Assembly (NCBI GenBank): GCA_034226945.1 | Contig: CP120463.1 | Span: 744,001 to 808,000 of the forward strand | DNA length: 64,000 nucleotides | Origin: Picochlorum sp. SENEW3 | Taxonomy: Eukaryota | Direction: 5' to 3' | Shown here: in pieces, positions 1,854 to 50,731 of the stretch | How the letters are laid out: every line of letters begins with the position of its first letter | Numbering within the stretch: the stretch's first letter is position 1 | Translations under genes and position numbers: made by a program | The notes under the pieces: generated by a model | What the model saw: only the letters and a program-made list of their open reading frames with translations | The model's database searches: none | Told to the model about the DNA's origin: nothing

Positions 1854-4800
1854 TTATGCCAACCGAATTTCGTTTTCGCCAAGGTCAGACAACTTTACCC
1901 ATTCAAAACTTTCCTCCTGGGTGCCCTTGTTGTAGACAATCTGATGGTTGGACGTATCCTGGTCAAAGTCAACGATTTCAGCCCTCCACCAGCCTCCTTC
2001 GTCCGACCAAAATACACTCACGTGAAGGCCGATAGCTCCAGGCCCTTGCGATGTGATTTGTGGCCCTAGAGGCTCTGTGGGGGAGAACTGTTCTGTCACA
2101 GGCAGCTTCTTCAGTTCTCCTGGTACTGCTGGTGGCTTGAGTTTGATTAATGTGGATTTTGGGGTCGCAATTTTCAGTGATATTTTTTTTAACGACTGTG
2201 TGGTCGTATCTGGCTGCTCGCATGGCTGCTGATCCACGCCTTTTGATGCAGCACATCCTGTTGGCTGCGGAGCTTCCGTTAGCACTGTGGATGCCTCTTC
2301 CTTCTCAACATGCTCATACGCGCCTGGAATAATAAATCGAGTTGTTGCGGGGTTCATTGCATGTGTATGAACCGGAGCTTTGTTTTGCGCCAAGTCCAAT
2401 TCATATTGGCCACATGCAAGGTAGTTCTCAAAGTCCAAAAGACAGCGTTCATAATTGAGCCTCATGTTGTAGGATGCTGATGTTTGGCCACTGAGATCTA
2501 GGTTCAATGATCTACAGATATCTTTCCATTGCTTTTCTTGTGTGACTCTCTCGTACCCGCATCGTTCCATGACAGACCACCATACCGTGAACAAGTCTAA
2601 TTCTCTATGAGCAAAGATAGGGATTTTGTACTTTCCCTTCAGGCCAATGTAAAAATTGGTCACAAGCATCATGAATTGGTCTCTGGACAAGGTTCTCAGT
2701 GCTTGTAGAATTTTTGGGTCTACTTGCTGACCAGGAGTTAATGGTCCTGATGGAATCAATCCAGAGCCAGCAGATTTGTGAGCATCTTTGGCTCTGGCAT
2801 TTGAGGCAAGGGCAGCATATGCCGCATATTTCGCAAATACCTCCGATCCAAGATTTTGAAGATAATCTCGATAATTTTGTTTTGTCTCGTCGCTATGATA
2901 CTGTGTATTGAGCTCCTGTCCTGGCTCCACAAAAGTTTTGTTGGCATAGATCTGGAGAAGATGCTCTGATCGCTGAGCCTGGGTGAGGACTTCCTCCAGA
3001 CGCATGTCTTCGAGTTGCCACTCTGTTTCTTGCCTAGAAGCCTCTTCGGCATCCGCGCTTCGAAGAGATGATCTCGCTCGCTGTGCACGAGCAACTGTCT
3101 GCTCAAGCTTGTGGGCCTCTTGCAGCATCCTCCGCTCTTCATCTGGGTCGATCTCCATCTTCCAAGGACTGATGTTGCTTGTTTCACCGATTGCAGTACT
3201 GTCAAATTCTACGATGATACTTTCCCAAGGATCGTGTTTGTTTTGAGGGTGTGTGTGGCACAGGTTTTCGACAACAGTTCCCTTTTTCCAATATCCAGTT
3301 GATTTTGATCGTCTTTGTGAAGGTCTCGGAGGAACAAACATTTTGAAACGATCATTTGCAGTCCAATCAACTCTACTCTGATTGATATATGTGCTCAGCG
3401 GCACTAAATAATCAACGAGTTCGGGATCCAGGACTATTGGGGCGCAAATACACGAGTTAGGCAGTTGGTCCTTTGGGCCGTACTCTATAGGTTTCAAATA
3501 CATCCATGCAACGGGGCGTCTGAAAATGGCAATTTCTTCATGGGTGAAACCTTCTGTAGAAACGTGGACCAGATCAGCCAGATGTCTCCGGTATGTTATA
3601 CCACGGACCACATATCGCTGCACTGGCTTCAACTGCTCTATCCTGTCCTTGAGAGATGTCCATTCATTTTTCACAAGATCAATCGATTCTTCCTTCAGGG
3701 GTAGAATTGGCGCTTTAACACCCCCAGAAATTCCTTTGTCACTCTTGGCCTGCATGTCAGACGTCTCTGCCTTTGGCACTTCAATGTTCAAAAGGTGCAT
3801 TGCCTTCTCCACGTGCTGCAACAGGCCAGTTTTGAGAACCACAATATTATCTGATGGGATGGGAACCGTCAAAATACAATTCAAGTCATCTAAAATTTTG
3901 AGGTATGTCCCACGAGGAATAACGTCAGCTTGCATGATGACGTGGGACTGTAAAGATGCTACTTGGAGGGGTACCTCTTTTAGATCAATGGAGGAAGCTA
4001 CCGCAGTTCTCCATTTCGGTGACCAAACATCAATCCACTCTTGCGTCACTTTTTTCTCCTCAATCAAAATGCGATCCGCTTCAAGCAGTGCCCTGGCAGT
4101 GTCACGCAGATTGCATGACATAATTATGTCTGAGATACCGTAGACTACCTTTGCAATTTCATCGTCCTGCGGAGAATACCGACACAAACATCAACTATAT
4201 TGAGTTTAAATGATTTATAATAATCTTCCAACGTACCTTGAACCAGAATGAAATAGAGCCAAGCATTGATTCAATTGTCTGACTAACTCGAAGCTCTGTA
4301 CTGAGAGGTGTTGGCCTTCCTTTGCAGAGATTCCACTCTCCGCGCAGAAGAGGTTGATTGATGCCTTTATATCCATCTAATCTCCAACTAGATAATTCTA
4401 TCGTGGAAAGTTTCTTGGCTGGGCCATCAGGGGAAGATGTTGGGCTGGGAGCTGAGGTTAATGCTGCAATCAAGTGACGTTCCAGATGAATATCGGCTTT
4501 TTTAAGCCAAAGGATCAATTCGTCTAATCGTAAACCTTCATACCAGCCCCATGTATCTCGTTGGGGCTCAAAAGCTGCATCTGAGTCATGGTCAACTTCC
4601 TGGCAGTATACCCTGAAGGCCCCAGCACCATCTCCTAGTGCCCAGTACCTCCTCCCACCAAAATCTTCACCTATAAAAGCCTTCGTTCCAACACCGAGAA
4701 TATCTTTCCAAACCTCCCATTCTGTCAGAGCCCTGTCCCCCGGAGACAAAGAGTCTTCGATGGGTGCCATAATGCTATCAATCTCTGAACGATAGTGCAG

Positions 4801-28520: not shown

Positions 28521-30090
28521 ATGGTGGAGCAAAATGGGGCGAAGAAGGCGAAATATTCGTTCACGCCTGTGCCCAAGGAATGGAACCTGGAATTTCCTAC
28601 TAAAGGAGAAACAACAGAAAAAAGTAACATATCCGGGGGCTGCAGAAGAATAGAGGATGCATACGAGAGGATTTGCCACTTGGGCCAAGGGACTTATGGG
28701 GAGGTGTTTAAAGCAAAGGACAAGGAGACTGGGGAAGTTGTCGCTGTCAAAAAGATTAAAATGGAGAACGAAAAGGAAGGATTTCCTATTACAGCAGTGA
28801 GGGAGATAAAGATTCTCTCCAAATTGGCAGCAAGTGAGGATAAATTCAATGGTGAATTGATGAAGTCAAATATCATTCGACTGAGAGAAATTGTTAGATC
28901 AGATGGTAAGTGCGCGCATGGTTGTCTTTTTTTTGCAATTTGTTTTGCAATGCATTGCAATTTATGGTATGTATGTATGTACAGGCTCGGAGGAGAATGA
29001 CTTCAAAGGCAGTGTGTACATGGTATTCGATTACATGGAACATGATCTTGCAGGACTTTTGGATAGAGCAAACCAGGTTAGGTTGGCTGATGCTACTGCT
29101 CGAGGTCTAGCACCACACAAGGCCAATCCTCCGTTTTTACCTGGCCAGGTGAAACGGTATATGAAGCAGCTGCTTGCTGGATTGGCACTGTTGAAAAACC
29201 ATAGGATTCTGCATAGAGATTTGAAGAATGCCAATTTATTAGTGGGTAACAATGGGCAGCTGAAGATTGCTGATTTTGGATTGGCAAGAAGTTTCTATGC
29301 TAAGAAAGCAACAGATGATAAAGATGGCCTCAAGCCTGATACATCAAATGCTACATCTATCAATACAATGACCAATCGGGTGATCACACTGTGGTATAGG
29401 CCTCCAGAATTATGTTTAGGAACGGAACACTACGGATATGAGGTTGACATATGGAGTGCAGGATGTATTCTTGTAGAAATGCTGACCGGCAGGCCACTCT
29501 TTCCAGGAAAAGATGAAGTGGAGCAGGTAAAATTGATTTGTCATGTTTTGGGCATGCCTGATGAGAATTCAATGCCCGGATGTACCACATGGAAAGAGTG
29601 CGTGATTGATTCCTAATGTTGTATGTGTTTCACCGCCGGCCATCTTATCTTAGTGTATCCTTTCTGCAGTTACGATAAGATTATGATGAGTCTGTCTGGA
29701 ACTCACTTTAGAAATTCCTCCAATCTCCGCAGTGTGCTGCAAAATAGAGGAATACAAGATCCATACGCATTGGATTTGATCGAAAAATTACTCTATCTGA
29801 ATCCAAAGAGAAGGATACAAGCAATTGAAGCAGCGAAGCATGAATGGTTCGCAGCCGAGCCCAGAATGCTTCCTCTCGAAGAAATGCCTCGATATGAGGA
29901 ATCTCATGAAGCTGCCATGAAGACTAAAAGGGCAGAGAAAAAAGCCGCAAGGATCGAACCGCCGGGACACCAATCATATGGACAACAACCTAAAGTATAT
30001 GGTACTTTTGGTGGCCACAGCCAGGACAGTCAGTTTTCCCAAGGACGAAGTCAGAGATCGATGCCCAAATGGCATGAAGAGCGTCGGTAA
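28521..30090 (+). CDS. CDKC: Cyclin-dependent kinase C (CDK9-like)
   Basis: GQGTYG, EKEGFPITAVRE, HRDLK, DFGLAR and TNRVITLWYRPPE motifs. Two introns. Confidence 0.92.
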
Positions 30091-39258: not shown

Positions 39259-42200
39259 ATGGGCAGGTATAAAGTAGACATTAATGGAGAGATTATTCAG
39301 AATCGTAATAGGGATGCTCATGGCCCTCCAAAGTTGTTGGGTCTTGTGCTGGGCCGGGACAAGGTGACGAGTTTGAGGGAGTTTTTGCTACGTATTGCTC
39401 GCACAAGACCCGAGGCGAGTCGCTTGTCTGTGACATTGCAGGGGCCTAATGATCATCCAAGTTATCAAAGGCTTTTGGATACGACGTGGTGTTATCTGAC
39501 GCCCGGAAGTGCTGATCTGGAGGCTGGATTTAGTCTCAAACAGAGCTGGAGCCAAGCACAGGTATGGCCATGGCTCTTTTTATTACTTGTCTGTATGTGT
39601 ATTCATGCTGCTGCTGCAATGAATGTGTGTCCTTATACTGCTGCTGCTGATGATGATTGAGGCGTTTTGTATGTGCAGTTGATTGGTCGAGCCATTGAAA
39701 CCCTCTTGTATGGGCAAAAGGGAAGGAAGAATGTCTTGATGTTTGGGTATGGAAAGGTGTGTACTGTGATAGATATGATACTTGAAATGTACACAATGAC
39801 TAAGTGGGTACACATTGGTTGCAGAAATCTTCCTCTGCGAAAGGCAAGTCAGTGGAAGGTGCTCACAGGACTGAAATGTATTGTATTGATGGGACTGCCA
39901 AATCAATGTGTTCTCCTGCGTGGCAGCTGTTGCAAACTAGAATCGGTGATACGCTCATGTTGTATTTATTGCTTCATGTTAGTATGTTCTCGACGCTAGA
40001 GAATGAATGTTTTTTCCAGCTGACTGGGTATCCAGTGACACTTGCTGCAAGAGCAGTGAAGAAGACATCACAGGCTCAGCAAGGGAGGTTATCGATGAAA
40101 CAGTATTATGAAAAGGATACTACCAATGATGGTGTAGGGGTGGTATCTAGACATCGGAAACGGATGAAGCTAATGAAGAATAGCGTGGAAACAAATGCAC
40201 AAGATGCAAGAGGAGTGCATCAAGGTACCAAGGCAGCAAAGCCAGGGCGACCTTCGAGCTGGCAGCGGAAAAAGTATAAGAGAGCAAAGGAGCGTGGGGA
40301 TGAGAGTACTGTGAGAGAGTTAGAGTTGCAGAGAGAAGTGAAGCATAGAAAACATGATGGTCAGCAATTGAATACTGCAGTATCTTCCTTGCACCAGACA
40401 CGTGAGTCACGTGATTCGAGGAAATCTACTAGGAAAATAGAACATTATCAGCATCCAAAATACGTATTAAGACCTTCGGAGATGATCATTCCACGTCAGT
40501 CAATGTTTTACAGCAGGAGATATTCTAGACAAGGTGGCCTTCCTTCTGAGCGTACGTCTCATTATTTTCTTTATGTATTGCTTCCTGTGATGTGATCCAT
40601 GTGCCGCTTTTTATATGCAGACATAATCATGCGATTGAATCCCGACAATAGGTCGGGTAAGGTTTTGTATCAGTACATTTTCAAGCGAAGGTTGAACCCA
40701 GTTGCCCTCCTGGCCAATCGGCGCAAGTCCATGCATTTACAAAACTGCCCATATCGTCCGTTAGTGCCTCCAAAGCATCAATATTTGATTCCATGGCTCA
40801 ATTCAATCGTTAGAAGGGCGCATAAATGCAATTATAATGCCTTACTGAATGTTCACTGCCCTTTACCAGATGCATATCTCAAGTGGATTGCAAAAGGCAG
40901 CGTTCGCGAGGCTAGAGGAGGGTCTTCTTTGGCTGGTGTAGGTAGTAAAATTCATTGTAATTCTTCCATTGATGGTGACGCGCATGCATGTGGTGGCATG
41001 AACGGTGCTGATGAACCTGCAGTTCATGCACTTGGACATGCCATGTCCACAGGGACAGTGATGAAGGCAGATGTACAAGATGAACTCTTGCCTCAGAAGG
41101 CACATAGGAATGGCACTCTGAACAACCAAGATTGCAATCAAGATGACGATGTTGGAAGCACTGGGGAGGAAATCCCCGACCTGAGTGCCTCATTTGTTCC
41201 TCACAGCAATGTTGCCAATTTTGTGTGGGCTGTCATTCGTGCTGTGATTCCAAGGCACATGCTGGGAGGCAAAAAGTCCAGGAAGGTGTTGAGGAAATCC
41301 GTGCATCGATTCATAGGATTAAAACGATTCGAGGATATGACTGCACATGAAGTCATCAGGGGCATTCCACTGTCAGAGATGCAGTGGCTCAATATCCACA
41401 GGACACCGACCAATGGAAAGGATACAAAGGGGATGAAATCAACATTTCCACCTAATAGCTTAGCATTCAGAACTCGTATGCTTCTCTTTTGGGTCGGTTG
41501 GCTGTTTGGATCCTTTGTAGTCCCCATTCTCAGGTCTCACTTTTACTGCACAGAAAACGAGTCATATCGACAGCAGGTTTTCTACTATCGCAAGCAAGTC
41601 TGGTCAACGATGATTGATAAATCATTCAAGGAATCTTTGTCATCAACTTTTATTCCCATCAAGGCGAAGGTCGCACGTGCAAGTCTTGCAAAGAGGAAAC
41701 TTGGAGTGTCGCGCCTTCGGTTTTTGCCCAAGAGGAATGGACTACGGTTTCTCGTGAATATGAGCAGGAAATCTGAAGCTCGGTTCAAATCATACACCGA
41801 AAAGGATCCTCGCTCAGGGAGAAAGTACAAACACCCTGCCGGTCGTCTACATTTCGAGCCGATCAATCAGACTTTACGGAAGGCTCAAATAGTTCTAAAG
41901 AGTGAGGCCATGAGGCATCCAACACTTTTTGGCAGCTCCATGTATGGTGTCAATGACATATTTTGTCATTACAAGCCATTTGTTAATCAATGGAGATCGG
42001 ATAGGAAGAAAGAGGCTGCCTTAAAATCTACGACAGTGTCACAGTTGAAGGAAAAGTTTGGCCCCTATGCTGTTTGTGTAGACGTATCCAGAGCTTTTGA
42101 CAATGTAGATGTCTCCACGTTGCTAGGAATCATATCAGAACTACTCACAGCTGAGGAGTACACCATTGTCAAATTCACTGAAATTGTGACCATCATGGGG

Positions 42201-43535
42201 GAGATTAAAATACGTTTCAGAAATTTTGCGGTTCCAACACACGAGATGCACGATGGTCACTTTTCCCAAAAAATGGCATCACTGTCAAATGGTCAGAAGA
42301 GTAGAATATTTGTCGATGCGATCACAGAAGAGAGAATATCAAGATACAATCTCATGGCACAATTAAAAGACTATTTGTCTCTGAATCTCGTCAAGCTCAA
42401 GAAAAAATGGAGGTATCAGTGCAAAGGCATTGCCCAGGGAGGCACACCCAGCACAATGCTCTGCAGTCTCTATTTAGGATACGTTGAACGAGCATGCTTG
42501 GAACCGATGATTGCATCATGCGGAGCAATACCTGTCATTTCCAATGAAGACATCGCATCTAGCTACAATTTTTCGTCGACACAGAACCTGACATCGCTTA
42601 CAGCACTAGGGCTAGCCTGTGGATCAAGACCGTCTGTGCAGAAACCAGTAGTCAATTTTCAAAGAGACAATTTACCGAGCAGAAGTTGCCCCGATCGATC
42701 CCATTCATTACTTCTTCGTCTAGTTGACGACTGGATCATCATATCACGCCATAAGGCTGTCGTAGAGCAATTTGCTTCAAGAATCCTTAGCGGGATACCT
42801 GGGTTCAACATCCATGTCAACCCCAGCAAGACACAATTGACATTTGATCTCACAGCGGTCCCAGGATTAGGAATGATGAAGCGAAATGAATTTGTTGAAG
42901 CCGATGGGTCAAGGTTCATCAAGTGGTGTGGTTTGCTCATTGACACCAGCACACTGGAGATGAGAGCTGACTACACTCGCTATGCTGGAGAACACATGGG
43001 GGCATCACTCAATGTACCAGCACAACGGAATCCAGGATCTGCATTGAGTTCGAAACTATGCCATTATATACGCCCAAAACTCATCCCAGTGCTCCTTGAC
43101 GAGGAAATCAATTCCCCATTGACAATTCGAATCAATGTGTATCAGACATTCCTCCTGGGAGCAATGAAACTGCATTGTTTCATGCATCGCCTCCCATGCC
43201 CACCAGATGATACACGGTCATGCCAATGGATAGTCTCAGCCATTGAAACTGGAATCCGTTATGCTATCGAATCGACAAGGGCCCGGCGAGTTGCACGACA
43301 GACAGGACATTCCAGGGCCATCATGTGCAACCCATCACTGCCCCATTCGCATGTAGAATATCTAGCCTTCTATGCATTTTATACAATCATGCGAAAGAAG
43401 CAGTCACGATACAAGGCTTTATTAGAAGAATTGAAGAACAAACTGAACCAACCTAGGTGCAAAAGATGTGCCCCTCATCTGAGAGAAGCAATAGAACCAA
43501 TACACTCTTCAGTATTTGATTCCATAAACTATTAA
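39259..43535 (+). CDS. TERT: Telomerase reverse transcriptase
   Basis: TEN domain (NVLMFGY, WQLLQTRIGD..M..LL, FFQLTG), CP motif (LLNVHCP), T motif FYCTE..VFYYRKQVW, LRFLPK, motif A VDVSRAFD, B' GIAQG, C LRLVDD, E WCG. Four exons. Confidence 0.97.
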
Positions 43536-43565: not shown

Positions 43566-44275
43566 CTATCGACATGTTGCATACATTGTTGCATCAGTCG
43601 TCATCCATGACACCGCATGGCTTCCAGTCGACTGATCACCTCGAGAACCAAAGACCCTCACCTGCCGAACATGTGTGTCTCTCCCATTCTGATGATTGAC
43701 TAGAATCGTAATCTGGAGAATCCTCCCAGTCACAGGCTTTTCTGGATGCCTGCACAAAGAGGGTATAACTTTACGTTAATATCAAATACAAGACATGCGT
43801 ATAGTGGCTGCCTTGTATACCTAACGAACGCACTCTTCGCTTGCAATTGGAAGCACAATCCACCCCTGAGGCTCAATCACTTCTTCTGTCCGAATACAAC
43901 TCATGTCACTCCATCTCGTCCCAACACTAACACTTAAACGCTGAGGAGTATAGGACTCATCCATCCTATAATTAGTCTGAATAGCAACCTTGCTAATGGC
44001 AACATACTGCTGAAAATGCAGTGTTATTGTATGCGGCTGCATTCCATCCGACTGCCAATACGTATCACTACTCCCATCGACAAGCAAATCAACTCCTATA
44101 TACCACGGAGACCATGGGTGAGCATGCGTCGGAAAATCCATTGCAGAACAGAAACACACACACCGTTTCCAGGCTTGGCACTAGAGACACTCCACACTGC
44201 CAACTTTCCCACATCTCGCTCTCTCTTATCCTCCTCCAGTGATTCAAAAATCAATCCAGAACTATTCGGGTTCAT
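43566..44275 (-). CDS. APC10: Anaphase-promoting complex subunit 10 (DOC1)
   Basis: AVWSVSSAKPGNG, TYWQSDG.QPH, DESYTP, EPQGW and NHQNGRDTHVRQ motifs. Two introns. Confidence 0.95.
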
Positions 44276-44611
44276 TATAGCATGGCAGGTATCGACGGAG
44301 AGAATATGAAAAACTACAGAACGTTGGCTGTTCCGGTGCTATAACTGCTGATGTATTCTATGGATCTATTCCTATTCCATGCATTCATGCCAACATCTTA
44401 CAGAACATATATAACAGTATTATAATAGCCCAATGGAGTGAGATTTGATGGTATTTTTTTCAGAAAGTGGTTGGGGTATGACGTTAGATATGGGTATTCG
44501 GTCAAACAGTCTCTTTGATTGGTCATGATATTGAGACCCAGACTGTGTGTCTATAGCACACAGGACACGCCCTCGAGCCTCGATGAGAAGAATACAAATT
44601 GTAAAATTTCA

Positions 44612-45414
44612 ATGATTCTTGAGACGAACGTGTCAACAGGCAAGGAAAGCGTATCGATACCTGAATTGCATAGGTACGTTTGGCTGAGAGAGTGTCCTCT
44701 GTGGTTGTGTGGTGGATGACATGGACGATTTGGTCATTCATTCAGTGTCGGAAAACGTATATTTGACGATATTGCCAAGGAAAGAAAGGGTGCGTTTGTG
44801 TGGACTGTGTTTCTGTGTGAGTGAACTCGTCGAGGGGTACGAGGAGGACGGAGGTTCTTCTCTTCTGTTTTGGCACGTTGATCATGGATCTGAGGACATT
44901 TTCATACATATATGCAGTTTCTGATCTTCATCTGGCAAGGTGCGAGTGCATATCCAATTGAGATTAGACGCAGTGCGTCCAACTGACTGGTAAAGAAGGG
45001 TTTGTTGTTTCTTTTTTGATTCAGTCTGAAGCTTTTGTTTGACAAGCACGCTCTGAAAGCAACAGCGATTGTCGATTCGGGTGGCGTCTCTTGCTTTGTT
45101 GGGCAGAAGACTGGTAGGAAGGTGTATCAGGTGAAGGGACACAAGTCTGGTGATACGTATACAGTGTTTCCAGATCACTATTGCTCTTGCCACTCATTCT
45201 TCTATGATATTGCCACGAAATCTGAAGGAATATATGTATGTGTATGAAAAATATCTTGGCTTGGGTGTGGACGAATGGCTGACATGGTATTGTCATATGT
45301 CTGTAGTGTAAGCATCAGGTTGCTGTCTACCTGTCGAATGCACTGGAGAAAACTAGGATTCAAACAGTGCAAGATTTAGTGATTGCTGAGATTTTGCAGG
45401 ATATATCGCGTTAG
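44612..45414 (+). CDS. SWS1: SWIM zinc-finger protein, SWS1/ZSWIM7-like
   Basis: Five exons reconstructed: ...LFDKHALKATAIVD...GRKVYQVKG...HYCSCHSFFYDI...|CKHQVAV...; CxC-x15-CxH SWIM motif. Stop TAG 45412-14. Confidence 0.85.
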
Positions 45415-45419
45415 ATATA

Positions 45420-45884
45420 ATGGTGTTGGATAGACGCGGCAAAGAAGAGGCTGTGCGTAGTAATACTCTCAGTGATACTCTGATGGAATATGAATCCAAC
45501 TCTATAGATTCGAGTGATTTTACCAATCATCATCAAAAAGAGTTTTCAAAGGGGGATACATTAGAATTATCGGGTAGTAATCATGGAAAGATTGTATCAG
45601 AAGGAGGGGCGTCCCTCATGGGACACACTGGAGTGGTGCATGAGCATGATGTGGGATTAGAAGAGCACAGCAGCCCTGCCAAAGCACTTTTATTGTTGCT
45701 GCTCGGTCTCCATCTTATAGGAGTGTTAATATGGCTGAGATTCTGGTTGAAGGATCGGAAAATCAAGTTTCCTCGAATGAAGAATACACCTCCTCCTCAG
45801 AAACAGTCCTGTACGTATGATATTGACAGCCGGTACATTTCAAAGATTGAGCTACCTCTGAAGGCCTTAAAAATAGCTAAATAA
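45420..45884 (+). CDS. Hypothetical single-pass membrane protein
   Basis: 154-aa ORF with one strong TM helix followed by a basic stretch. TGTAA at 45888. Confidence 0.7.
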   Translation: MVLDRRGKEEAVRSNTLSDTLMEYESNSIDSSDFTNHHQKEFSKGDTLELSGSNHGKIVSEGGASLMGHTGVVHEHDVGLEEHSSPAKALLLLLLGLHLIGVLIWLRFWLKDRKIKFPRMKNTPPPQKQSCTYDIDSRYISKIELPLKALKIAK

Positions 45885-45896
45885 TGATGTAATAAT

Positions 45897-48310
45897 TTAT
45901 AAACTTCTCGTTGATCCCCGCTGCGTCGGAGCTCCAGTCACAATGTCAACATCAGCAGTTGTCCCAAGTGAGTCAGAGTCTAGGGCCCATCTCAAGGATG
46001 ATGCAGATGATCTGATGGCCTTGAACGCCTTCAGATTGGTGAGGTATAATTTCAGTCTCTGCTTCGCGGGCGTTTTCCATTTCTCGAAACGGAGCAGTGC
46101 AATGAGAGAAGAGGCATATTTGCTCAACAAATGATCCTGCATGCTCGATTTCATACCCCCCAAGGTATAGCTTTCTATCCTAGAAGGATCTATGATCGGG
46201 CCGACCTCGGTCAGATAGATGCAATGGCCATCTCGTTTGTACAGGAAAATAAATTTTCCATTCTTGATGACGATATCATTAAGATGCATGATGTTCCACG
46301 TGTTTGGTACCATTAAATTGTAGCTTCTGACAAACGCACTATTCCCAACCCGTGGGGATCCATATGTATAGCACATGACGCTGTGTGCTGCTCCTATGCT
46401 TCTATTCCAGTCTGAGAGATCATACGCTGCAATCTTAGCAGCTGCACCTCCAAGACTATGACCACAAACCAGAATTCGCCAAGGGAGTGGTGTTTCATCT
46501 GGTGAGCATTTTGTAATCTCCGCCACCATTGACATGCATGTATCCTTCATGCCTGAACCAAACCAAAAGTCACCAAAACCAGCATGAATCATGGGCTTTG
46601 TTCCCATGAGATAATTACCCCTCATTGGAGGATGTGTGGACCTCCACAACTTGAGATCAGTCAGAACATTCTTTGCAGATGCAGTTCCTCTAAAGCATAT
46701 GACAATCCTTCTTTGTTCTTCACTCCAGGCAATCAAACATTTTGAATCACATACTTTATTCCATATCAATTTTGAATCGGTAAATGAACATATCTCCAGC
46801 GTACTCTCCAACTCAAACGTTGGCATTTCCACCTCGTCAAGCTCGTAGACCATGAACGAGAACAAAAAGGCTGTCAGCATGGTCTCATAACAAACTTGGA
46901 CATCAGTTTCATCCACCACATCAGCATTCTCCACCCATTTTATATTTTCATTTCTCACATGCTGGTTTGACTCGCTTTTCGATGGTAGATATGGCGAGTG
47001 CATCCAAAGAGAGATTGTGACTAAAAGTGTCAAGGAAAATAGATATGGAGATAGCCCTACAGCCATCATGAATTTCACTGGACAGGAACCGTGAGATACA
47101 AGCCATAAAAGAACTATGCTTAACACTCCTATAAAGGCAACGATCAATCGAGTCTGTATCTGGAAACCCAACTCAATATGATTCATTTTGTATCTCGAAT
47201 ATGGCAGACATCTCAACCAGCTATCTGCCCAAAGACAGCAAATAATATATAAAGCCATATAGAACAGAAAGATTGATCCAATCACGATCATAAGATTATC
47301 ATAACCAACGCCATAATTGTTTAATGTGCACGCAGAATTCCAGGGGTCACAGTTCAGCACACCACTCTCAGAGGAGCAATTTGCATCAGCTTGAGAAGAG
47401 CACCAATACCCACCAAGCGGACCAACAGTGTATAGTAAAAGCAGCAGCAGAGTAACCTCTGGAATTGCATAAAAAGCCAAGAATACGGCAATATACATAG
47501 ACACAGAAAGGTCGATGCCGGCAGGAATAGAAATGTTTCTCCTCTGAAGGATGGCCAACAACCTTACTCTGTTGAGCAATCGTTCCAAAGCTTCTCTTGG
47601 CAGCAAAACTAATACTTGAAGAAATTGGTTTGTCACGACAATATTCAATAGTGACCAACGAATAAAGGCAAGTATAGCAAATGATGAGTAGAGCCATGAG
47701 CACGAAACCTCCAAGAGCCAAATGTCTGATCCAATCAGCAATATCTGAAACAGGACATCTCACTCGGTACATTTCGGAACGAACAAGTAACGAAAGCAAA
47801 CCGTACCGTGTTTATAAAGAGACAGATGAAATCAATCATCGCCAGTCGAGTCAACCTCGCTCGCCGTCGTGATGTTGTCTTTTTTGCCAACCTGAACGAA
47901 GTCACATTCTTCCAATGATATCCACCAAAATAGAGCATGCCCAGGCATGCCGAACAGAATAGAACTAAATTCATGATCAAAATCCTTTTGCCAGCTACTG
48001 AAGAAGTATAATCTGATTGAACCCAAACGGCCTGAATGATCAGAACAATCAGAGACAGCAACAAGCCAAATTGCAAGCAACGAATGTAGCGCATGGCAAC
48101 AGAATCCTCCATGTACTCTACCCGTAGCACGAGATCAATATCCCCATGTATCTCAATGAGCCCATCATCCAACTCAATACTGGATAACGTGTCTCTAAGG
48201 TCGATTGGACGGGCTAATACATCGTCAGAAACAACCTCTGGTTCCTTCTCTTGTTGTGAACTGCTCGCTGTCGAAGCATTACAATTCTCAACAGGCTCCT
48301 TAACGCCCAT
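45897..48310 (-). CDS. Multi-TM class 3 lipase, divergent paralogue C
   Basis: FRGT, HAGF, GHSLGG, YTYGSPRVGN, NDIV and DHLL motifs. Intron at about 47743-47805. Confidence 0.88.
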
Positions 48311-48490
48311 GGTGTATGAATAAATTTATCAAACTAATAAAAGAGCGACCTTCGGGGAGATATACTGTCTCTGCTGAACAGTACAGGCAGAGGGTACTAC
48401 TTCCCACAGCCTGAAGTTGCTGCTCCGTGCTACAATTTCCCTTGATTGTGTGGGCAGATACTACTTTAAACATTAAATTTATTCAATTAA

Positions 48491-50731
48491 TTATTCAGAA
48501 ACAGTTCCATAGTCCTTAGAACGTGCATGAAATGCCTTTTTCAACAGACTGATCATGCGGGCAAGTTCAGGTTTGCTAACGAGGTCCCTGACAGCCTCAA
48601 TCTCTGCATTCTTCTGAATAATGGACAAGAACGATCTACTATACGTTGAAAGCAGATGCTCACTCACGCTTTTCGTGTGAAATCGATGCAGGGTCGACTT
48701 TTCTAAATGGGATGGATTGATAATCAGGTCGCCAAACTTGGACACCAGACAGACTTGTGATTCCCTCTCGTACAGGTAGAAGAATTTGCCACTCGTCGAT
48801 ACCGCATCGTTTGGGTGAAAGATGTCCCAAGAATTCGGCACATTCTCCCGATATTCTTTTGCAAACGCATGGTTGCCCACGTAGGGGCAACCAAGTGTCA
48901 TGGTCCAGATGCACACCTTCTTGTCAGCATGGGCTGGCAGCTGAGATGCAATGTCAACCGCGGCCAATTTCGCTGCAGCCCCTCCCAACGAGTGCCCGAA
49001 GCAGTACAGGTCCCATGCCTCGCCCGAATCTGCAGATTTGAGGATGATTTCTTTCAGCAACGCCATCACATCCTCTCGCAGCCCAGATTCATACCAAAAC
49101 TGATTGAACCCAGTGTGGATGAGAGGCATTGTTCCGGTCCAGTATCGACCTCGCCGAGGAGGGTGTGCCATTCTCCACACTTTAGCATCCGTTAGGAAGT
49201 TCTTTTTGCTTGCTGACCCGCGAAAGGACACCACAATTATCCGACGCTCGACGCTCCAAGCACAAAGGCACTTGGCATCTAACGATCTCTGCCACAAGAG
49301 TTTGTATTCTGACAAATCATACAATGACATTGCCATGTCAATATCAAACAGAGAATTTGCAACTTCTTCAATGTCATACACAAGGCGTGAAAAGTAAAGA
49401 GCCTTCAAAGCCATCTCGAAACAAAAGACACTATTCTGCGTCGTCGAAGGCCTTGCCTGTTCGTGTGATGCAATTCTCTCCTCATCCCACACAACTGTCT
49501 GATTCCATTGTAAAGCGTCCACAATCTCTTCAGTCAAGCAAATCGGCATTCTCAGAACTAAAGTGGTACACACCAAATAACATGTTGCAAGCTCCAAAGG
49601 AAGATAGCCTATGAATACCATCACATTAGAGTTGCAGGATATTCCATGCACCATCCACAGGACAATGATGGACAATGCATAAAACACTGTCGTGTGCACG
49701 CGAGTCTGAAGTTGAAACCCGAGTTCTGTATGATTAGTGCGGTACAACTCAAAAGGCAATGCTCTCAAAGAGGCCATGGTATACAAAACAAGCCCAATAT
49801 ACAAAAGTAGAAGAGCCAGAGCATAGATTGACAACGTTATAGAGAGGCCACGTGTCACCGCCGCAAGACTGCAGTCATACGCCCACGTATGACAGTCTGT
49901 ATCAGGATTTGCACTTGGATAACATGCTGTATCATATATACTAGTACAAAAAGATCCGTGGATTGGCCCCATCGCTGCCATCGCCGTCACGATGGTCAGT
50001 GCTTCAAATGGTAAGTAAATCCCAGCAAATGTCAGCACATAAACCCAGTGTGGAAGATCAATCCCGTGTACAGTACCCCTCACCTCCTTCGTATCAATCA
50101 ACCAGTCAAGTCTAAAGAATTTCAGCAGCGAGAATACAGTTGTCACTGGCATGGCCAGCATTGCCGAGAGAAACTGATTTGCTATGATAACACCCAAGGC
50201 ACTCACACGAATGAAGGAGAAGATCAACACCCATCCCAAAAACCATCCACATTCTCGATTCCGCGCGATCGCATTAGTAGCTAGGAACGAACCAACTGCG
50301 ATAATTCCAGCCACGAGATCAATGACAGCAAGCCTGCAGACGCGCAAGCGACGGTCACTCCAGACGTACTCTTTATTCTTTAATGACTGCAAAATCCTCA
50401 TACCAAAGATGGTGCCAGCAATCATATATATAAGCGCCACAAAAGACCCAAGAGTCAGATTCAGAATCAATAATTTGTCCGAGCGAAGCAGAGAGTCCTC
50501 TGATTCATACTTCCATGCCGCAACCAGGCACAAAACAGCAAAGGCAAGTAGCAGCAGGAAGTTTTTAAAATAATACAAAGGTCTGGTTTGCTTCTCATTC
50601 TCGCACTCAATTTTCAAAGCGACCTTCCCAGAACTCAAAGAACCATCCTTGTAAAATCCTTCCTTGGCCAACTCAAAGACATTCGCCATGTAATTCTTCC
50701 TACCGCTCTGAGACTGACGTTCTGAAGCCAT
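48491..50731 (-). CDS. Multi-TM class 3 lipase, paralogue A
   Basis: N-terminal TM bundle; FRGS, HTGF, GHSLGG, NDAV and EHLL motifs. Confidence 0.92.
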   Translation of the reverse strand: MASERQSQSGRKNYMANVFELAKEGFYKDGSLSSGKVALKIECENEKQTRPLYYFKNFLLLLAFAVLCLVAAWKYESEDSLLRSDKLLILNLTLGSFVALIYMIAGTIFGMRILQSLKNKEYVWSDRRLRVCRLAVIDLVAGIIAVGSFLATNAIARNRECGWFLGWVLIFSFIRVSALGVIIANQFLSAMLAMPVTTVFSLLKFFRLDWLIDTKEVRGTVHGIDLPHWVYVLTFAGIYLPFEALTIVTAMAAMGPIHGSFCTSIYDTACYPSANPDTDCHTWAYDCSLAAVTRGLSITLSIYALALLLLYIGLVLYTMASLRALPFELYRTNHTELGFQLQTRVHTTVFYALSIIVLWMVHGISCNSNVMVFIGYLPLELATCYLVCTTLVLRMPICLTEEIVDALQWNQTVVWDEERIASHEQARPSTTQNSVFCFEMALKALYFSRLVYDIEEVANSLFDIDMAMSLYDLSEYKLLWQRSLDAKCLCAWSVERRIIVVSFRGSASKKNFLTDAKVWRMAHPPRRGRYWTGTMPLIHTGFNQFWYESGLREDVMALLKEIILKSADSGEAWDLYCFGHSLGGAAAKLAAVDIASQLPAHADKKVCIWTMTLGCPYVGNHAFAKEYRENVPNSWDIFHPNDAVSTSGKFFYLYERESQVCLVSKFGDLIINPSHLEKSTLHRFHTKSVSEHLLSTYSRSFLSIIQKNAEIEAVRDLVSKPELARMISLLKKAFHARSKDYGTVSE

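Follow-up and report, generated by a model that had tools for sequence, protein, structure and literature searches.

Gene content of the locus

The window analysed here, a stretch of 64,000 nt of Picochlorum sp. SENEW3 DNA, belongs to a source genome of 13.85 Mb in 14 contigs with a GC content of ~45%. At the locus under study, two short genes follow each other on the forward strand, between a divergent APC10 gene and a convergent lipase gene (Table 1). The upstream gene (ORF1) was modelled with 5 exons (44612-45414) and encodes an SWS1/ZSWIM7 protein of 148 aa (447 nt) without internal Met; the downstream gene (ORF2) encodes a putative membrane protein. An earlier note, made from the letters of the window, had described the SWS1 stop TAG at 45412-45414, an ATATA gap, an ATG at 45420 and a TGTAA at 45888, and all these positions are correct.

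Table 1. Coordinates of the features discussed, in window positions
Feature	Position	Strand	Description
APC10	43821..44415	-	divergent neighbour; Pfam ANAPC10 E 4e-30; spliced contigs end at 44400-44415
Minimum 5' UTR	44591..44611	+	21 nt, no AUG; spliced X16 contig starts at 44591
SWS1 exon 1	44612..44673	+	X16 joint skips 72 nt
SWS1 exon 2	44746..44789	+	X16 joints; matched in L004-L006
SWS1 exon 3	44918..44939	+	22 nt; X16 joints
SWS1 intron 3	44940..45024	+	85 nt; often retained; sole SWS1 intron without AUG
SWS1 exon 4	45025..45235	+	CxC and conserved Phe of SWIM finger; out-of-frame AUG (CDS nt 308)
SWS1 exon 5	45307..45414	+	CxH and conserved Ala; out-of-frame AUG (CDS nt 371); stop TAG 45412-45414
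Inter-ORF gap ATATA	45415..45419	+	5 nt; ORF2 out of frame with ORF1
ORF2	45420..45884	+	154 aa (465 nt); putative single-pass membrane protein, from homologs, clusters and alignments
TGTAA	45888..45892	+	candidate poly(A) signal; sole + strand copy from SWS1 stop to 46100
Class 3 lipase gene, 3' part	45897..47498	-	convergent neighbour; stop 12 nt from ORF2 stop

The exon structure of ORF1 was read from RNA-derived contigs of four (X16, X3, X15 and X1) of the 17 listed runs. All four introns were seen as GT..AG joints in X16, and the joint of intron 4 (45236-45306, 71 nt) was seen both in X16 and in X3, which comes from a different organism and a different study; the contigs of X15 and X1 contained no splice joints at the locus. 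The end of the X16 contig at 44591 sets a minimum length for the 5' UTR and is not a mapped transcription start site, and X16 gives no cover over 44467-44547.

SWS1 is a zinc-finger helper of RAD51-type recombination. The SWIM motif of ORF1 has the form CxC-x15-CxH (n = 15), with the Phe and Ala residues in place, and exon 4, which encodes the CxC half, shares 59% of 70 aa with the Botryococcus protein P0060, whose Atlas matches are SWIM/ZSWM7 clusters at 0.95-0.96. ZSWIM7 is also the source-given name of the public record P0012 (WPT18261.1), and a search of the source genome with SWS1 returned a single match. The Pfam SWIM model scored 16.9 and 15.2 bits against the related loci L004 and L003, below its cut-off of 19.6, and gave no SWIM match with exon 4 of the window taken alone; a PDB sequence search with SWS1 returned two chance matches only and no relative. 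According to the available text of PMC5727457, the motif is CxCxnCxH with n usually 6-16, and its Phe and Ala are strictly conserved in the Shu2/SWS1 family; ORF1 resembles this family as a stand-alone protein of ~140 aa with CxC-x15-CxH, in which Phe follows the first half of the motif, and Ala the second, by three residues. Members of the family bind a RAD51 paralog and promote recombination; a role in recombination is presumed for the algal protein from that of its family. On motif and similarity, ORF1 is assigned to SWS1/ZSWIM7, in agreement with the earlier note.

Conservation of the SWS1-ORF2 pair

The earlier note had suggested looking for the linked pair in other chlorophytes. Five related loci (L002 to L006) were obtained from one metagenome scan; in 5/5, ORF2 directly follows SWS1, and both genes share a strand. 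SWS1 is about 56-66% identical to its counterpart in the window, and ORF2 44-66%. Because of the relatedness among these loci (L004 and L005 are 98% identical), we count about four lineages; these differ in GC (43 to 58%) and in intron number (2 to 4), L003-L005 having no intron 4 and L003-L006 no intron 3. L002 includes the last SWS1 exon only, so that full models are available for the window and for L003-L006. The gap between the two ORFs measures 5 nt in the window and in L002, 50 nt in L003, 24 nt in L004, 25 nt in L005 and 33 nt in L006; it contains no AUG in 6/6 loci, and all three relative frames occur. Scans of viral contigs and of genome contigs returned none of the more distant loci (those of the ORF2 relatives P0030-P0046).

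The APC10 and lipase genes are also close by in most related loci. The gene order of L006 is that of the window (TERT, APC10, SWS1, ORF2 and both lipases), and in L005, unlike the window, APC10 is located beyond the lipase. Because the order with APC10 and lipase is largely kept as well, the adjacency of SWS1 and ORF2 is not special in itself. In the window, TERT (39876-43535) and APC10 (43821-44415) adjoin SWS1 on one side; on the other, two membrane-anchored class 3 lipase genes stand in tandem (45897-50731, - strand), an arrangement also present in L002 and L006, and the first of them has no TGTAA on its own strand before 44398.

Nor is a short gap unusual in itself: in a raw ORF scan, 20/76 tandem ORF pairs were separated by <=60 nt, a count confounded by introns, since most of the short gaps proved by eye to be intron artefacts. 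Two examples in the window are a 6-nt ORF gap at 28903-30090, which lies inside an intron of a single CDK-like kinase gene and is not intergenic, and a 3-nt gap at 40595-40599, which likewise looks like a TERT intron. A few of the 20 close pairs look by eye like true gene pairs, 42-56 nt apart and with AUG-rich upstream ORFs. One apparent same-strand pair elsewhere in the source genome (contig C12, about 670750-671813) has a 56-nt gap and 26 AUGs in the 218 codons of its upstream ORF, which appears unlike a leaky-scanning pair.

The SWS1-ORF2 junction forms no stable RNA fold (z -1.07). A shared junction motif was considered and rejected: a primer from the A. protothecoides TOM22-SDHAF pair shares 12 letters around the ORF2 start, and the count in the source genome (4, against 3 for the reversed control) points to chance.

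Features of ORF2

The ORF running from the ATG at 45420 to 45884 agrees with the 154-aa transmembrane protein of the earlier note and has one hydrophobic segment, whose best 19-residue window starts at residue 90 (mean KD 2.35). Ten close homologs and 22 clusters at 50% identity were collected. Their common layout is an acidic N-terminal part of widely variable length, one helix with an invariant His and a conserved basic C-terminal tail. The net charge of ORF2 is -8 before the helix and +8 after it, which suggests a cytosolic C-terminal tail. In P. soloecismus, the ORF2 homolog is annotated on its own (P0029), and the X3 copy carries a 9-nt insertion that keeps the reading frame. ORF2 matched no Pfam family, its relatives giving only sub-threshold membrane-helix matches, and had no usable match in Atlas; the structure model of the relative P0037 consists of one confident helix (mean pLDDT 51) and indicates no function. 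On these sequence comparisons, we regard ORF2 as a genuine gene that belongs to no known family.

AUG depletion and start contexts

Once spliced, ORF1 contains 2 internal AUGs, at CDS nt 308 and 371, both out of frame and in weak contexts. The absence of internal Met claimed by the earlier note thus stands for the protein; the note had omitted these two AUGs, because of which ORF1 is AUG-poor and not AUG-free. They open uORFs of 34 and 13 codons, ending 40 nt before ORF2; indeed, all the frames opened by internal AUGs are short and end before ORF2. The earlier note had also proposed an ATG-depletion test on the upstream ORF. Our controls were in-frame stretches of 444 nt from 85 ORFs of >=300 aa in 264 kb of the source genome (the window plus 200 kb); 0/349 have <=2 AUGs (median 11), and 5/349 have no Met. 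Beyond its start codon, ORF1 has no AUG within its first 306 nt, the longest such run in the 85 long ORFs being 210 nt.

The same depletion was found in the related loci. The AUGs seen before ORF2, against those expected from neighbouring coding DNA, were 2/11.8 in the window, 3/12.2 in L006, 0/5.0 in L003, 0/4.6 in L004 and 0/4.6 in L005 (the L005 neighbours serving as control for L003 and L004), that is, ratios of 0 to 0.25 in 5/5 full models; ORF2 itself is not depleted (0.8-2.2). Among L/I/V/M residues, Met accounts for 0/169 in the five SWS1 copies versus 28/189 in their ORF2s. More widely, 24 of 25 distinct SWS1 cores (from four clusters, 3 fragments or duplicates being omitted) have no Met, the exception being that of Botryococcus. 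With the protein kept fixed, synonymous shuffles gave a weak depletion (P 0.14, 0.017, 0.048, 0.14 and 0.145); most of the signal is therefore one of amino-acid choice, and the SWS1 family is perhaps simply Met-poor, since a single outgroup SWS1 is too little to show otherwise.

The start context of ORF1 is weak (TCA|ATG|A, with T at -3 and A at +4) and that of ORF2 is strong (ATA|ATG|G). With the relatives included, whose ORF1 starts are sequence models, the pattern is largely kept: the ORF1 context is weak in 4/5 models, the strong one of L003 being the exception, and ORF2 has G at +4 in 6/6 loci and a purine at -3 in 5/6. L006 carries extra AUGs at -8 and -4 of its modelled SWS1 start (3051-3131), the effect of which depends on where transcription starts.

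The TGTAA noted earlier after ORF2 is present, and the motif is enriched after stops in the source genome (34 seen vs 9.2 expected), often within 20 nt, which makes this copy plausible as a poly(A) signal. It is not kept in relatives: X1 and X3 have altered copies, and in L002 the bases examined downstream of ORF2 do not contain it. The lack of a TGTAA directly after SWS1 says little, because only 33/85 long ORFs carry one within 150 nt of the stop.

Transcript evidence and retention of intron 3

In X16 and X3, one contig each runs unbroken from spliced exon 4 through ORF2 and continues into the convergent lipase gene. Because of this continuation, the spanning contigs fit one mRNA without proving it: they are unstranded and confounded by the lipase gene, their depths are rough, and contigs cannot show where an RNA starts.

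The same contigs indicate frequent retention of intron 3. In X16, the retained path has a depth of 156.9 and the spliced joint one of 125.3 (about half of the signal retained); the intron-2-retained path has a depth of 4.9, and no retained path is listed for introns 1 and 4. The retained X16 contig reaches 7 letters past the start of exon 3, which fits a spliced exon 2. The X3 contig keeps intron 3 and splices intron 4, with 3 differences over 44917-45235 and 0 within intron 3; retention rests on these two runs. It brings in a TGA at 44959, which closes a 49-codon (49-aa) uORF, adds no AUG and leaves ORF2 intact. Since L003-L006 are without intron 3, it is not needed for the SWS1-ORF2 pairing.

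Intron 3 may simply be a slow, recently gained intron, the unspliced RNA being nuclear or degraded. That retention acts as a regulated switch of a bicistronic mRNA, in which the spliced form would give SWS1 and ORF2 and the retained form, from the same promoter, would keep ORF2 with SWS1 off, is a speculative idea that we regard as rather doubtful. If true, a single transcript could set the output of a recombination gene apart from that of its partner, and the locus would be a simple test case of splicing that retunes the two outputs of one mRNA.

Proposed mechanism and alternatives

We propose that the locus is expressed as one capped mRNA, which would start shortly upstream of 44612, be spliced and end after ORF2. 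Part of the scanning ribosomes would initiate at the weak SWS1 AUG and produce SWS1; the others would bypass this AUG and the two weak out-of-frame AUGs and initiate at the strong ORF2 AUG, giving a separate small membrane protein. Selection would hold SWS1 Met-free and AUG-poor so that scanning reaches ORF2. The bicistronic, leaky-scanning reading of the earlier note is thereby supported by the linkage, the AUG-free gaps, the AUG depletion restricted to ORF1 and the start contexts. We estimate the probability of one mRNA giving two proteins, with ORF2 reached by leaky scanning, at roughly 0.65; that the mRNA is bicistronic at all, be it read by leaky scanning or by reinitiation, can be held with good confidence.

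Reinitiation on the same mRNA, by which ORF2 would mainly be translated after the SWS1 stop or after the short uORFs (of 49, 34 and 13 codons), seems unlikely. It would suit the gap, AUG-free in all six loci and only 5 nt long in the window and L002, the internal AUGs, which all open short frames ending before ORF2, and the strong-looking ORF1 start of L003. The depletion nevertheless spans the 5' two-thirds of ORF1, distant from the stop, the gap ranges from 5 to 50 nt, and the junction is without stable structure. PMC11892635 describes reporter assays in Auxenochlorella whose results favoured leaky scanning, and it does not fully exclude reinitiation.

We also consider it improbable that SWS1 and ORF2 are two separately transcribed genes, closely packed in a genome of 13.9 Mb, such that transcription of ORF2 would begin within intron 4 or exon 5 of SWS1 and the SWS1 mRNA would have ORF2 as its 3' UTR. 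The few apparent close pairs with AUG-rich upstream ORFs might be of this kind, internal-promoter isoforms are described for Auxenochlorella in the available part of PMC12633428, and contigs cannot show RNA starts. Against this, the avoidance of AUG in SWS1 exons 1-4, in about four lineages of differing GC and intron number, would be left unexplained, and the gap never exceeds 50 nt. A promoter near the SWS1 end is disfavoured because it would not explain the AUG-free first 306 nt.

A single fused protein is very unlikely. It is suggested by the public record P0012 from Picochlorum sp. SENEW3, which agrees with the window's letters and joins SWS1 exons 1-4 to ORF2 (278 aa), with an implied intron at about 45240-45390 deduced from the record's sequence. 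This joint is absent from the contigs of the four runs, X16 and X3 splicing 45236-45306 instead; contigs drop rare variants, so that a minor fused form could escape. The splice would require a GAG acceptor and would lose the CxH of the zinc finger, and stop read-through would meet a TAA after one codon; the earlier note had named both routes as a possible refutation of its pair, and no sign of either was seen. Moreover, the gap frames vary among loci, L003-L005 have no intron 4, ORF2 is annotated alone in P. soloecismus, and an SWS1-like N-terminus was seen by eye in 0/22 ORF2 clusters. Automated annotation often gets bicistrons wrong, according to the available part of PMC12633428, and we read P0012 as a misannotation of this kind, or possibly a rare isoform.

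Finally, that ORF2 is a mere open frame in the SWS1 3' UTR, as its want of Pfam, Atlas and structural matches might suggest, is hardly conceivable given its 22 clusters with invariant residues and an N-terminal part variable in length, and the frame-keeping insertion in X3.

Comparison with known bicistronic loci

Leaky-scanning bicistronic loci in green algae, to which the earlier note had appealed, are indeed documented (PMC7896298, PMC11892635), and the available text of PMC11892635 counts 36 in C. reinhardtii and 43 in A. protothecoides, with medians in the latter of 291 nt for ORF1, 54 nt for the 5' UTR and 40 nt for the gap. SWS1-ORF2 resembles them by its short ORF1, 5' UTR and gap, its weak ORF1 and strong ORF2 starts, its few AUGs before ORF2, the unrelated functions of the partners and their conserved order. 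It differs in that ORF2 (465 nt) is barely longer than ORF1 (447 nt) and that ORF1 contains an often-retained intron. Furthermore, the published bicistrons rest on Iso-Seq or Ribo-seq, and SWS1-ORF2 on sequence and contigs. Among the closest in kind are DNA-repair bicistrons of PMC11892635 such as RMI2-PER1 (UTEX250_A09.22680/22675) and REX1S-REX1B: the former also combines a small DNA-repair ORF1 (423 nt, 14-nt gap, 1 internal AUG) with an unrelated partner. They consist of other genes and have long-read support. Our look-up of RMI2 gave a match below the cut-off.

Within the available parts of PMC7896298 and PMC11892635, Picochlorum is absent among the species named in the conservation tests, and SWIM, SWS1 and ZSWIM7 were not found in the supplements, where many ORFs are nameless and could be listed under a bare identifier. 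Literature searches on bicistronic ZSWIM7, on bicistronic or polycistronic Picochlorum and on algal SWS1 returned no bicistronic ZSWIM7 and nothing on this locus. The pair is therefore undescribed, as the earlier note had supposed, as far as the literature was searched, allowing for an unnamed entry among the many nameless published ORF1s. We regard SWS1-ORF2 as a well-supported candidate of a known type, catalogued at hundreds of algal loci, whose gene pair is new to the published lists as searched.

As such, it would extend the catalogue of algal bicistrons to the genus Picochlorum and to a recombination gene that is conserved, and suggests that loci of this type can be recognised in DNA sequence by AUG depletion combined with close linkage. 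The public gene model would be corrected, the P0012 fusion presenting SWS1 as a defective protein joined to a membrane segment, and ORF2 would define a small unnamed membrane-protein family. Knockout or tagging of SWS1 in these industrial algae would probably alter ORF2 too.

Two other loci of the source genome were recorded. In the locus L028 on contig C10 (positions 1288-1997 of L028, - strand), a gap of 62 nt separates a Tom22 ORF (72 aa) from a Complex1_LYR_2 gene downstream, apparently matching the TOM22-SDHAF3 bicistron given in the available text of PMC11892635. In the locus L031 on contig C7 (positions 1099-2097 of L031, + strand), a CYTH gene has its first in-frame AUG 10 nt after the end of a short two-exon ORF that contains no internal AUG; a second, stronger AUG of the CYTH gene is at 1441. 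The two genes look like CDC26-TTM3, although Pfam did not confirm CDC26 for the short ORF.
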